A stretch of 64,000 nt of DNA, taken from Elusimicrobiota bacterium (GTDB lineage Bacteria; Elusimicrobiota; Elusimicrobia; UBA1565; UBA9628). Under the pieces are notes generated by a model. It was not told the origin of the DNA and did not search any database. It worked only from the letters and a program-made list of their open reading frames with translations. Each line of letters starts with the position of its first letter. Positions within the stretch are counted from its first letter, which is position 1. Of the stretch, positions 43,053 through 60,325 are shown piece after piece. Both the position numbers and the translations under genes were made by a program. The stretch spans positions 76,185-140,184 of the forward strand of contig JACPFR010000005.1 of assembly GCA_016182905.1 (NCBI GenBank), written 5' to 3'.

Positions 43053-43375
43053 TGGCGACGATGATGAGACGCAAGCACCAAAAGACGGCGATGCTGGCCG
43101 TCGAGTATCCGCGGCAGAGCGAGAAGATCACCTCCTCCGATTACACCGTCCGCGTGTTCGCGCCGGAGTCGGCGAAGAAGGTCGGCATCTCGATCGATCA
43201 GGGCCCCTGGAAGTCCTGCCGGTCCGCCGTCGGCTATTGGTGGTTCGACTGGACGGGCTACGAGAACGGCGAGCATCAGATCGTCGTCTCCATGGAGACC
43301 GCGGAAGGCACGCGGATCATCTCGGAGCCGCACGAGTTCTTCGTCGAGCGCGCGCCGAGCCTCATCGCGCGCTAG
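43053..43375 (+). CDS. small Ig-like (E-set-like) protein, paralog family member 1 (GYWWFDW motif)
   Basis: YTVRVFAPESAKKVGISIDQGPWKSCRSAVGYWWFDWTGYENGEHQIVV. AAGGAG RBS 8 nt upstream of the ATG at 43053. Confidence 0.6.
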
Positions 43376-43383
43376 GAGGGCCC

Positions 43384-45753
43384 ATGGCCATCGCGACGCC
43401 GGCGACCGGTCTCGTCAAGCGGTTCGACGAGATCGGCCTCGGCGACGTCGCCTCGGTGGGGGGCAAGAACGCGTCGCTGGGCGAGATGTACCGCGTCCTG
43501 TCCCCCCGGGGCGTGCCCGTGCCCGACGGGTTCGCGATCACCACCGACGCCTACCGCCGCTTCACCGGCTCCCTCGGGCTCAAGCGGCCCCGGGGGTCCG
43601 GCGAGGCGGCGCGCCGGGCGATCCTCTCCGCCGCGTTCCCGAAGGACCTCGAGGAGGCGATCGCGGCGGCGTACGCGCGCCTGGGCGGAGGCAGGGACGC
43701 GGCGGTCGCCGTGCGCAGCAGCGCTACCGCCGAGGACCTCCCTGACGCGAGCTTCGCGGGCCAGCAGGAGAGCTTCCTCAACGTGACGGGGCGCGCGGCC
43801 CTGCTGGACGCGTGCCGCCGCTGCTTCGCTTCCCTGTACACCGACCGGGCGATCTCGTATCGCGTCGACCAGGGCGTGGACGAGGACCGGATCGCCCTGT
43901 CGGTCGGGGTCCAGCTCATGGTGCGCTCCGACCTCGCCTCGTCCGGAGTGATGTTCACGCTCGACACCGAGACCGGCTTCCGCGAGGCGGTGCTCATCAA
44001 CGCGGCTTACGGCCTGGGCGAGAGCATCGTCCAGGGCGCCGTCAACCCCGACGAGTTCATCGTCTTCAAGCCCGCGCTGAAGGCCGGCTTCCGCCCCATC
44101 ATCCAGAAGACCGCGGGCAGCAAGAAGGTGAAGATCGTCTACGACGACGCTGGGACCAAGGCGGTGCCGGTGGCTCCGGCCGACGCCGCGCGCTTCGCCG
44201 TCGACGACGAGGAGATATTGACCTTGGCGCGCTGGGCCTGCATGATCGAGGACCACTACTCGCAGAAGAAGGGCGCGCCCTGCCCGATGGACATCGAATG
44301 GGCCAAGGACGGGGCGACGGGACGGCTGTACATCCTGCAGGCCCGGCCCGAGACGGTGCAGTCCCGCCTGCGCGCGGACGTGATGGAGACCTATCGCCTC
44401 GAGCGGCGGGGCGCGGTCCTGGCCGAGGGCCGCAGCGTGGGAGGGAAGATCGCCTGCGGAATGGCGCGCGTCATCATGGACGCGAGCCGCCTGGGCGAGC
44501 TGCGCGACGGCGAGGTGCTGGTCACCGACAAGACCGACCCGGATTGGGAGCCGATCATGAAGAAGGCCGCGGCGGTCGTGACGAACCGCGGGGGACGCAC
44601 CTGCCACGCCGCCATCGTCAGCCGCGAGCTCGGCCTGCCGGCGGTGGTGGGCGCGGAGACGGCGACGGAGATGATCTCGGACGGGGACGAGGTCACGGTG
44701 AGCTGCGCCGAGGGCGAGGCGGGCTTCGTCTATGAAGGGAGGCTGCCCTTCGCCGTCGAGCGCGTCGAACTCAAGGGCCTCGCCAAGCCGAGGACCGACA
44801 TCATGCTCAACGCGGCCGACCCCCGGGAGGCGTTCGGCCTCTCGCGCGTCCCGAACTCGGGCGTGGGGCTCGCCCGCATGGAGTTCATCATCACGAACTT
44901 CGTCCGCGTCCATCCGATGGCCCTGGTCCACCCCGAGCGCGTCGAGGACCCCGGGGAGCGCGCGGAGATCGCCCGCCTGACGTCCTTATATGAGGACAAG
45001 CCGTCCTATTTCGTCGACACGCTCGCCGAGGGCGCGGCGATGCTCGCGGCGGCCTTCCATCCGAAGGACGTGATCCTGCGCCTGAGCGACTTCAAGACCA
45101 ACGAGTACGCCGGCCTGCTCGGGGGGGCGGCCTTCGAGCCGCGCGAGGAGAACCCGATGATCGGCTTCCGCGGGGCCTCGCGCTACTATCATCCGCGCTA
45201 CCGCGAGGGCTTCGCCTTGGAGTGCCGCGCGGTGCGCAAGGTTCGCGAGACGATGGGGCTCAAGAACCTCAAGCTGATGATCCCCTTCTGCCGCACCGTG
45301 GAGGAGGGGCGCAAGGTCCTCGCCGAGATGGCGCGGCACGGGCTCGAGCGCGGCCGCGACGGCCTCGAGGTGTACGTGATGTGCGAGATCCCGAGCAACG
45401 TGATCCTCGCCGCGGAGTTCGCGAGGATCTTCGACGGCTTCTCGATCGGCTCCAACGACCTGACCCAGCTCGTGCTCGGCGTCGACCGCGACTCGGAGAT
45501 CGTCGCGCCGATCTTCGACGAGCGCGACGAGGCCGTCAAGACGATGATCGCCCAGGTGATCGCCGCGGCCAAGGCCGCGGGCCGCAAGATCGGCATCTGC
45601 GGGCAGGCTCCGAGCGACTATCCCGACTTCGCCCAGTTCCTCGTCGAGCGGGGCATCGACAGCGTCTCCCTCGATCCCGACGCCGCGCTCAAGACGACTT
45701 TGGCGGTCCTGGAGATGGAAAGGAAGCTGGGCGTTCAAGCACCCGGCTCATAA
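43384..45753 (+). CDS. ppsA: phosphoenolpyruvate synthase
   Basis: 789 aa. ATP-grasp N-terminus, phospho-His domain (GGRTCHAAIVSRELGLPAVVG), and PEP-utilising C-terminal domain. Confidence 0.9.
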   Translation: MAIATPATGLVKRFDEIGLGDVASVGGKNASLGEMYRVLSPRGVPVPDGFAITTDAYRRFTGSLGLKRPRGSGEAARRAILSAAFPKDLEEAIAAAYARLGGGRDAAVAVRSSATAEDLPDASFAGQQESFLNVTGRAALLDACRRCFASLYTDRAISYRVDQGVDEDRIALSVGVQLMVRSDLASSGVMFTLDTETGFREAVLINAAYGLGESIVQGAVNPDEFIVFKPALKAGFRPIIQKTAGSKKVKIVYDDAGTKAVPVAPADAARFAVDDEEILTLARWACMIEDHYSQKKGAPCPMDIEWAKDGATGRLYILQARPETVQSRLRADVMETYRLERRGAVLAEGRSVGGKIACGMARVIMDASRLGELRDGEVLVTDKTDPDWEPIMKKAAAVVTNRGGRTCHAAIVSRELGLPAVVGAETATEMISDGDEVTVSCAEGEAGFVYEGRLPFAVERVELKGLAKPRTDIMLNAADPREAFGLSRVPNSGVGLARMEFIITNFVRVHPMALVHPERVEDPGERAEIARLTSLYEDKPSYFVDTLAEGAAMLAAAFHPKDVILRLSDFKTNEYAGLLGGAAFEPREENPMIGFRGASRYYHPRYREGFALECRAVRKVRETMGLKNLKLMIPFCRTVEEGRKVLAEMARHGLERGRDGLEVYVMCEIPSNVILAAEFARIFDGFSIGSNDLTQLVLGVDRDSEIVAPIFDERDEAVKTMIAQVIAAAKAAGRKIGICGQAPSDYPDFAQFLVERGIDSVSLDPDAALKTTLAVLEMERKLGVQAPGS

Positions 45754-45834
45754 GCGTCACCTCGCCTCAATTGTGACGAACGACATTACCTCCTAAAATC
45801 AGCAAGGGCAGTCCGATGCAAAGGGAGGTTGTGA

Positions 45835-59582: not shown

Positions 59583-59651
59583 CGCGGCCATGATTGCTTC
59601 CGGCGGACGTCCGGGAATATGCTCTTGGCACGGCGCGTGCGGGAGGGTCAC

Positions 59652-60038
59652 ATGAGACGAGCGGTCAGATCGCGAGGCGCGGGCGGCACGGCGGTCCTGG
59701 AGGCGCCTCGCCGCGCGCGCACGCCGATGAGCTTCAAGCTGTGGGACACGTTCGGCGCGGACGACGTGGCGCCGGAGATCTCCGTGGAGCATCCGCAGAT
59801 CGGTCAGCGCAGCTATTTCCCGGAGAGCGAGTACCAGGTCCTGGACTCCTCGATCGAGGGGCTGGAGATCTCCATCGACGACGACGAGTGGCGCCCGTGC
59901 CGCCGCGGCGAAGGGTGCTGGTCGTACGAATGGACGGAGTATCAGCCCGGACGCCGGCAGGCCGTCGTCCGCGTCCGTCCGCACCGCAGGGAGAAGGAGC
60001 CGCGCCAGACCTGCCTGTTCCTGGTGGACCTGCCGTGA
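59652..60038 (+). CDS. small Ig-like protein, paralog family member 3 (divergent: GCWSYEW)
   Basis: LEISIDDDEWRPCRRGEGCWSYEWTEYQPGRRQAVV. GGGAGGG RBS before MRRAV. Confidence 0.5.
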   Translation: MRRAVRSRGAGGTAVLEAPRRARTPMSFKLWDTFGADDVAPEISVEHPQIGQRSYFPESEYQVLDSSIEGLEISIDDDEWRPCRRGEGCWSYEWTEYQPGRRQAVVRVRPHRREKEPRQTCLFLVDLP

Positions 60039-60325
60039 CGCGGCTCTCACCGGCCGGCTCGGAAGGCTTCGCCGTGCTCTACCCCGGAGAGGGGGAGGTC
60101 GTCGACGCGTCCCGCTGCCGCTTCCTCATCGACGCGCCGGACCGCCGCGTGGAGATCGCCATCGACGGCGAGCATTGGGACGCCTGCCGCCTGGGCGGCG
60201 GCTACTGGTGGTTCGAGCGGTCCGGCCTCGCGCCCGGGCGGCATCAGGCGCTCGTCCGCTGCGAGGGGACGTCCGGACGGCCCCCGGTCCAGCGCGCCGT
60301 GCGCTTCCTCGTCGCGGCGAGCTGA
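60035..60325 (+). CDS. small Ig-like protein, paralog family member 4 (GYWWFERS)
   Basis: VEIAIDGEHWDACRLGGGYWWFERSGLAPGRHQALV. GTG start overlapping the member-3 TGA stop (GTGA), suggesting translational coupling. Confidence 0.5.
   Translation: MTRLSPAGSEGFAVLYPGEGEVVDASRCRFLIDAPDRRVEIAIDGEHWDACRLGGGYWWFERSGLAPGRHQALVRCEGTSGRPPVQRAVRFLVAAS

Follow-up and report, generated by a model that had tools for sequence, protein, structure and literature searches.

An undescribed family of small intracellular Ig-like proteins in Elusimicrobiota, linked to a sensor-less histidine kinase and to enzymes of central carbon metabolism

What do four small, related proteins do in one stretch of Elusimicrobiota DNA, where two of their genes directly follow a histidine kinase (HK) that has no sensor domain of its own? 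The question is raised by the window analysed here, the whole 64,000 nucleotides at positions 76,185 to 140,184 of contig JACPFR010000005.1 (assembly GCA_016182905.1), and by its four genes m1 to m4 (Table 1). The original prediction, made from the DNA letters without database searches, had taken their products for cytoplasmic proteins with an Ig-like fold, expanded locally beside signalling genes, and had proposed a ligand-binding or partner-switch module feeding the kinase. We find that the four proteins belong to an undescribed family of single-domain, cytoplasmic, Big_7-related Ig-like beta-sandwich proteins. What is new here is an Ig-like domain in an unusual, apparently regulatory, role inside the cell.

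The four-member family is real. All four open reading frames (ORFs) exist and have in common a domain of ∼85 amino acids, with pairwise blastp E values from 2e-27 (m1/m2) to ∼3e-10 (m3/m4); with all four as tblastn queries, the window yielded no copy beyond them. The four sequences agree at just 13 positions. The core that had been described as invariant, SIDxGxW..CR...GYWWFDWT, holds for m1 and m2 and is degenerate in the other two: the core of m3 is SIDDDEWRPCRRGEGCWSYEWT, with GCWSYEWT, and that of m4 is AIDGEHWDACRLGGGYWWFERS, with GYWWFERS. The start of m1 had to be shifted by one position, from 43053 to 43052 (GGGAGA precedes the ATG, as read from the ORF codons), while that of m3 at 59652 was borne out by its orthologues and has GGGAGGG 5 nt upstream. 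The start of m2 is most likely 58021 and not 58060, in agreement with all orthologues and with the annotated protein P0001, 'hypothetical protein HYV14_01890 [Elusimicrobia bacterium]', to which m2 is 100% identical; AGGAGA lies 6 nt upstream of it. The orthologues of m3 have in common an N-terminal extension, M-x-x-K-[LI]-W-D (MSFKLWD... in m3 itself), and a second Cys.

Identity among m1 to m4 is 30–45%, as compared with 60–90% between each of them and its own orthologues (for m1, 47–86% over 30 orthologues; for m4, 55–91% over 12). Because the orthologues are closer than the paralogues, a recent local gene expansion was ruled out and, as far as these sequences tell, the four copies are old, sub-functionalised paralogues, each tied to its own partner gene.

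The family is defined by the signature P-x3-E ... Y-x2-R ... W-x2-C-R-x3-G-[YH]-W-W-[YF]-D-W ... G-x-H. Over 234 distinct homologous domains, its central part, W-x2-C-R ... G-[YH]-W-W-[YF]-D-W, is 93–99% conserved in every context. The Cys-Arg pair had been singled out as strictly conserved, and rightly so: C51 is kept in 98% of the domains, with Ala as the sole alternative, and R52 in 99%. Conservation at the remaining signature positions is 99% for P14, 94% for E18, 91% for Y26, 89% for R29, 97% for W48, 94% for G56, 99% for W58, 95% for W59, 96% for D61, 93% for W62, 99% for G68 and 88% for H70.

A profile search of 1.84 billion cluster representatives gave 1412 matches at E≤1e-3, which fall into two classes. 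The first consists of giant multi-repeat Ig proteins, none of which carries W..CR; they lack the signature and were rejected as true members. The second comprises ∼100 proteins of 90–150 amino acids plus a handful of fusions, all keeping the signature, with W..CR present in 101 of the 107 small proteins. Scanning one genome per GTDB species for G[YH]WW[YF]DW returned 300 confirmed copies. The best 80 of these, found with a 14-sequence subset of a 73-sequence alignment, are the loci used below for the Tal-PGI fusions, the pyruvate kinases and the census of adjacent genes. Almost all of these best 80 derive from metagenome-assembled genomes of Elusimicrobiota, Elusimicrobium minutum among them, and several genomes are represented by two or three copies. 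The family hardly occurs outside Elusimicrobiota, and a genome carries several paralogues. When metagenomes were scanned with the m4 subfamily, three loci only were returned. With several hundred clusters at 50% identity and 2–4 or more paralogues per genome, annotated as 'hypothetical protein' only, the family merits a model of its own, even should its role turn out to be no more than scaffolding.

One exception outside the phylum is P0036, a secreted protein of 1345 amino acids from a Phycisphaerae bacterium. In it the complete domain occurs four times (E∼1e-25 each), in alternation with another repeat and ahead of a CBM53 starch-binding module and a dockerin-like tail.

When m2 was modelled by AlphaFold2 from an alignment of 22 sequences, the outcome was a confident beta-sandwich of eight strands (pLDDT 89.3, pTM 0.77), in support of the Ig-like fold. 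Foldseek matched the model to generic Ig-like, FN3, PKD and E-set domains of the PDB (TM 0.65–0.77, <20% identity), among them CelAly B1, the X1/FN3 modules of CbhA, the sulfite oxidase dimerisation domain, SiiE BIg and CopC. The four window proteins stayed below threshold with every Pfam and NCBIfam model, and NCBIfam has no model for the family. Big_7 (PF17957) scored 18.2–18.7 bits on m2 and 13.3 bits on m1, below its gathering threshold of 24.1, and did not match m3 or m4. Among 73 members, the only recurrent Pfam matches were Big_7 (15/73, best E 9e-6) and Big_13 (8/73). The better Big_7 scores of some homologues support a probable relationship at the superfamily level only. Big_7, Big_13 and other Ig/E-set sandwiches resemble the window domain in its predicted sandwich of 7–8 strands; however, Big_7 domains are typically extracellular tandem repeats without W-x2-C-R/GYWWYDW, whereas the window domain occurs singly, in the cytoplasm and in association with enzymes and signalling proteins. 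The likeness to CBM48 that had been proposed together with the Ig/E-set fold did not survive: none of the 73 members matches CBM_48 (PF02922) or AMPK1_CBM (PF16561), even at E≤10, and CBM48 membership was rejected. In a profile search of PDB sequences the only match, at E=0.1, was to 'isoamylase N-terminal domain protein' 6mou. The family was found in none of Pfam, NCBIfam, the PDB and the searchable full-text literature, and a term search of the Elusimicrobia genomics paper (10.1101/765248) likewise returned no description of it.

In Elusimicrobiota the proteins appear to be intracellular, as had been predicted, because none of 130 small homologues contains a hydrophobic transmembrane (TM) or signal-like segment and because the domain is fused to cytosolic enzymes. 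A secreted or periplasmic location was accordingly rejected.

The linkage of m3 and m4 to the kinase is kept in other genomes. The kinase itself conforms to its original description as a 244-residue protein without input domain. Its HATPase_c domain is recognised by Pfam at E 2e-22 (80 bits), and NCBIfam kinase models (PhoR, CreC, CpxA) align with residues 28–235, H-box included, that is, with DHp plus CA only. Merely ∼27 residues lie ahead of the H-box, and no TM segment, PAS, GAF, HAMP or other Pfam domain was detected. The kinase ATG is preceded at 4 nt by GGAGGA. The order HK-m3-m4 is syntenic on seven further contigs that represent five distinct gene arrangements (L001, L085/L086, L087/L088, L091 and L092), where identity reaches as low as 61% for m4 and 56% for HK. 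The kinase of L001 is 78% identical to that of the window, and identity in L091 and L092 is ∼90%. In L085/L086 (HK 61%, m3 71%, m4 62%) a CBS-domain gene (L085:2307-2738) overlaps the kinase start, and in L087/L088 (HK 57%, m3 50%, m4 61%) a stand-alone receiver gene (L087:2913-3323) lies upstream. Throughout, the m3 orthologue stands between the kinase and m4, and m4 follows m3 directly. The predicted GTGA overlap of the m3 stop with the m4 start is present in the window; the overlap is 4 nt in L001 and 1 nt in L085, and the two genes overlap or abut in every cassette. Such translational coupling suggests a 1:1 pair.

The partner of m1 is the gene for phosphoenolpyruvate (PEP) synthase. The m1 stop lies 8 nt ahead of the ATG of the synthase gene, and the m1-ppsA pair is found again in L089 (66% identity, different surroundings) and L090. 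A Usp gene also remains near m1 orthologues, in L089, L090 and the contig of P0211. As predicted, the gene for an AhpD-like protein of the carboxymuconolactone decarboxylase family (CMD) precedes m2 on the minus strand and is transcribed divergently from the kinase, and m2 lies in a CMD operon in three related loci. A ferritin gene separates CMD from m2 in L085/L086 and a hemerythrin gene, on the other strand, does so in L001, while in L091 and L092 no m2 was found within 3 kb of CMD. A distant m2 homologue adjoins a Na/Ca exchanger gene and has no kinase nearby.

Beyond the stand-alone single-domain genes, which are the majority form, the domain occurs in fusions. In 13 of the 80 loci it makes up the C-terminal ∼95 amino acids of a long ORF for the bifunctional transaldolase/phosphoglucose isomerase (Tal-PGI). 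Nine of these 13 Tal-PGI-Ig ORFs are full-length, at ∼1050 amino acids (L026, L031, L042, L048, L050, L055, L066, L070, L075), and the other four, of 658–743 amino acids, are possibly truncated or mis-called. The representative from an E. minutum metagenome-assembled genome is L031:5178-8324. The gut-lineage forms (L026, L031, L070) have Ala in place of the conserved Cys, and in E. minutum the Arg is kept. Other fusions that retain the signature are Ig-glutamine synthetase, REC-Ig, PGI-Ig, an Ig-ACT pair and an Ig-CBS pair. Long domain-bearing ORFs in L057, L014, L008, L010 and other loci contain no additional Pfam domain; they were rejected as fusions and are probably over-extended start calls.

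To judge from conserved gene order, the domain is also a regular neighbour of pyruvate kinase. The operon rpiB-(tal-pgi)-Ig-pyk is conserved, and in loci that lack Tal-PGI or have it split, the Ig gene stays directly 5' of pyk as a stand-alone gene. All 19 complete pyruvate kinases in the Elusimicrobiota loci are short (335–354 amino acids) and consist of the barrel domain without PK_C; 17 of the 19 are encoded 81–208 nt downstream of a gene whose product is the Ig-like domain or ends with it. These observations come from loci L019, L025, L026, L031, L036, L037, L048, L060, L063, L066, L067, L073, L075, L078, L080 and L083, at ∼8340–9480 in most. PK_C is the allosteric domain of pyruvate kinase and normally mediates its tetramerisation. 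Pyruvate kinase and PEP synthase both act at the PEP/pyruvate node.

In a census of immediate neighbours, based on crude ORF calls in the 80 loci and a Pfam scan, the 129 genes that flank 66 stand-alone members gave Response_reg 12 times, PK 8, RpiB 6, HATPase_c 5, GerE 4, TAL 3 and HSP20 2. Receiver-domain genes occupied position −1 in 9 of 66 cases, compared with a background of ∼2.5% at positions ±4 to 6. Many loci are orthologous, so that none of these counts are independent. Together with the REC-Ig and Ig-CBS fusions, this enrichment upholds the link to signalling that had been suspected. Partner switching in the STAS/RsbW sense, on the other hand, was rejected: m1 to m4 are Ig-like and not STAS proteins, and the kinase has DHp and CA domains with an H-box. 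The idea of a local expansion beside a kinase also gives way to a wider picture, since the family is phylum-wide and its commonest partners are central-carbon enzymes (Tal-PGI by fusion, pyruvate kinase, RpiB and PEP synthase).

The family thus combines stand-alone genes with fusions to enzymes, two-component proteins and sensor domains. This is the pattern of the small-molecule-binding ACT, CBS, GAF and PAS domains, which resemble it also in having several paralogues per genome; their folds are unrelated, and they are universal whereas the phyletic range of the present domain is extremely narrow. The reading that we favour, tentatively and at a probability of about 45%, is that of an accessory or regulatory module in contact with the product of the neighbouring gene, the m3/m4 pair serving the sensor-less kinase and m1 serving PEP synthase. 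Family membership, predicted fold, conservation, synteny and fusions are its observed basis, to which it adds physical interaction, ligand binding and a direction of signalling as inferred elements.

In mechanistic terms, the conserved residues R29, R52, Y57, W59 and D61 would lie on one face of the ABED sheet. In the model they should face the solvent and Cys51 the core, and a buried Cys51 fits Ala as its sole substitute. The patch is near-invariant in subfamilies with different neighbours, as would be expected if the exposed face bound one ligand, or one partner surface (possibly homotypic), throughout the family. Through direct contact the domain would then modulate the product of the adjacent gene. 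The m3 and m4 proteins would supply the input or accessory module that the kinase is missing, and the kinase operon would be transcribed divergently from CMD-m2 via a conserved operator-like region. Comparable kinase accessory proteins are known in the PII-NtrB, Sda/KipI-KinA and CheW-CheA systems. The likeness lies in a small soluble protein encoded with a sensor-less kinase and, presumably, in direct binding, to which synteny points in the present case; there is no relationship in sequence or fold.

Several observations weigh against the favoured reading. The usual place of Ig-like folds is outside the cell, where they act as spacers or adhesion modules. Kinase genes at ±1 (5/130) are not clearly above a background of ∼3%, and because overall enrichment is not clear the kinase link is specific to some subfamilies. 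To judge from the REC-Ig fusions, the domain may serve on the output side instead of the input side. The exposed face is assigned by strand alternation, not from coordinates. Finally, m3 and m4 of the window have lost part of the conserved patch and may not bind a ligand, if that is what the patch does.

A more sweeping form of the accessory-module reading is rather doubtful. It holds that one phylum has recruited an Ig-fold domain as a general intracellular currency of sensing and regulation: a trans or cis allosteric subunit of pyruvate kinases without C domain and of PEP synthase, a regulator of Tal-PGI and glutamine synthetase, an input for sensor-less kinases and an output for receivers, wiring central carbon status into two-component signalling. 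If the domain is regulatory, a new fold would be added to the short list of intracellular sensor and accessory domains, the working of Elusimicrobiota pyruvate kinases without the canonical allosteric C domain would be explained, and there would be a concrete candidate for what feeds signals into a histidine kinase without a sensor. E. minutum is cultivable, and its Tal-PGI-Ig fusion beside a short pyruvate kinase makes the hypothesis experimentally testable.

Rather than sensing anything, the domain could serve homotypic or heterotypic oligomerisation, with Ig-Ig contacts as scaffold and m3/m4 as a heterodimer that bridges or dimerises its partners. We consider this unlikely, even though the constant coupling of m3 with m4 in all orthologous loci, the occurrence of the domain on enzymes as well as on regulators and the downstream pyruvate kinases devoid of the domain that normally mediates tetramerisation would suit it. 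It is further suggested by the presence of the dimerisation domain of sulfite oxidase (Mo-co_dimer, an E-set domain) among the top fold matches (Foldseek E∼3e-5, TM∼0.7), which is likewise an Ig-like domain appended to a cytosolic or organellar enzyme. That domain, however, is only 12–15% identical, lacks the signature and is never stand-alone, whereas stand-alone genes are the commonest form of the present family. Moreover, R29, R52, W59 and D61, which are probably exposed, are 89–99% conserved even where the subfamilies differ in their partners, and a shared ligand would account for this at least equally well.

Carbohydrate binding is a less probable explanation again. In this case the domain would be a cytoplasmic module for glycogen or alpha-glucan that tethers enzymes and regulators, as does the CBM48 of AMPK beta, itself a small beta-sandwich on metabolic and kinase regulators with CBS partners, as in the present system. 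A signature rich in Trp and Tyr, the weak match to the N-terminal Ig domain of 6mou, the four bona fide copies beside CBM53 in the Phycisphaerae protein and the fusions to sugar-phosphate enzymes (Tal-PGI) and CBS would all be in keeping with it. Yet the resemblance to CBM48 is a weak one of pattern: no member matches that model, AMPK1_CBM or any other CBM model at E≤10. Nor is there linkage to glycogen genes, no glycogen-metabolism family being among the listed top 25 of the 79 families matched by the 129 adjacent genes, and the kinase, PEP synthase, glutamine synthetase and CMD protein are partners without obvious glycan link.

The strong conservation of Cys51 and His70 might instead indicate a thiol-redox or metal sensor, in which the Cys (with His70 and Asp or Glu) would signal stress by oxygen, peroxide or metals to the kinase and the metabolic enzymes. 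This appears improbable. Neighbours such as the AhpD-like CMD protein, ferritin, hemerythrin, Usp, Hsp20 and the Metal_resist/CpxP-like protein agree with such a role, as do CopC among the fold matches and a homologue, P0146, with a tail rich in His, Asp and Met. The substitution of Cys by Ala alone, as in the Tal-PGI protein of E. minutum, with Arg52 kept, is nevertheless the pattern of a small buried residue, not of a nucleophile or metal ligand, and it led us to reject the Cys as a catalytic or redox centre as a leading idea. The side chain of Cys51 is moreover expected to point to the core, by strand alternation, and most contexts of the family (pyruvate kinase, RpiB, Tal-PGI, PpsA) are unrelated to stress or metals. 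Least credible by far is hitch-hiking, in which the role of the proteins would have nothing to do with the kinase or the adjacent enzymes: the variable surroundings of m2 (apart from CMD in L091 and L092, and beside the exchanger without a kinase in its distant homologue) speak for it, but HK-m3-m4, m1-ppsA and Ig-pyk outlast the rearrangement of surrounding genes, and covalent fusions exist.

Table 1 Coordinates of the four Ig-like genes and of neighbouring features in the window
Feature	Position	Strand	Description
Tandem Usp gene	42091..42987	+	Pfam Usp, E 3e-51, two stretches; upstream of m1
m1	43052..43375	+	107-aa Ig-like protein, canonical signature (ISIDQGPWKSCRSAVGYWWFDWT); ORF with homology to m2-m4
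PEP synthase (pyruvate, water dikinase)	43384..45753	+	PPDK_N 7e-108, PEP-utilizers 8e-27, PEP-utilizers_C 3e-57
m2	57734..58021	-	95-aa Ig-like protein, canonical signature (LSIDDGEWKPCRMDAGYWWFDWT)
CMD gene	58106..58651	-	AhpD-like, Pfam CMD E 4e-12; upstream of m2
Divergent CMD/HK intergenic region	58652..58847		TTGACGG at 58708-58714 and 58730-58736; TATAAT at 58814-58819
Histidine kinase	58848..59582	+	244 aa, soluble; DHp H-box FLVHELRNAL and HATPase_c, no sensor domain
m3	59652..60038	+	128-aa Ig-like protein, degenerate signature; lacks R29, Y57, W59
m4	60035..60325	+	96-aa Ig-like protein, GTG start, partly degenerate signature; lacks Y26, R29, W62
CpxP/ZraP-like (Metal_resist) gene	60411..60911	+	166 aa; Pfam Metal_resist E 6e-5, below cutoff

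The intergenic region between CMD and the kinase is strongly conserved. Its mean column identity with L001 and L085 is 78%, compared with only 60–85% identity for the proteins encoded there; the 181-residue form of CMD also fits the orthologues of these two loci. Both TTGACGG boxes of the original prediction are present. The heptamer as such is not rare, since the window holds 10 where 7.4 would be expected, but the block around the two boxes is kept in the orthologous intergenic regions. Four elements stand out as conserved: CGTTGAnnGTTCCGTACCAAT, then 22 bp further a second TGACG, then GTTACA and CCTATAATC. The last lies 29 nt ahead of the kinase ATG, and one conserved block carries CGTTGACGGTTCCGTACCAAT...TTGACGG. 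In sequence, the region resembles an operator combined with a −10 box. Neither a consensus sigma-70 promoter nor an intrinsic terminator was detected in 57500-61000, and scans of the window for Rfam families and tRNA genes were negative. The 84 nt that separate the CMD stop from the start of m2 (58022-58105, minus strand) contain the GC-rich inverted repeats GGGCGG-AGA-CCGCCC and GCCGGC-A-GCCGGC, which could form stem-loops.

Downstream of m4, the CpxP/ZraP-like protein has an N-terminal signal-like sequence in its translation and is described as secreted. The linkage of its gene is looser than that of m3 and m4, as it adjoins m4 in L001 and L091 and is displaced in L085 and L092.

A two-component cluster occupies 51619-55710 on the minus strand, ∼3–6 kb from the kinase locus. 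Its domains, assigned by eye from the translations, are a stand-alone receiver (51619-52113), a REC-containing histidine kinase (52094-53602), a receiver (∼53539-53956) and a further histidine kinase (53982-55703).

Elsewhere in the window, an ORF at 3823-12111 (+) encodes a protein of 2762 amino acids with fn3, Big_13, HYR, NHL/beta-propeller and ZU5 domains; a location at the cell surface is presumed for this giant protein. Two segments, 1-4000 and 14001-16000, have a G+C content of 0.53–0.58, compared with ∼0.70. The former encodes HEAT-repeat proteins and a tandem rhodanese (3084-3821), the latter a Fic-domain protein (14133-15605), and both may be acquired DNA.

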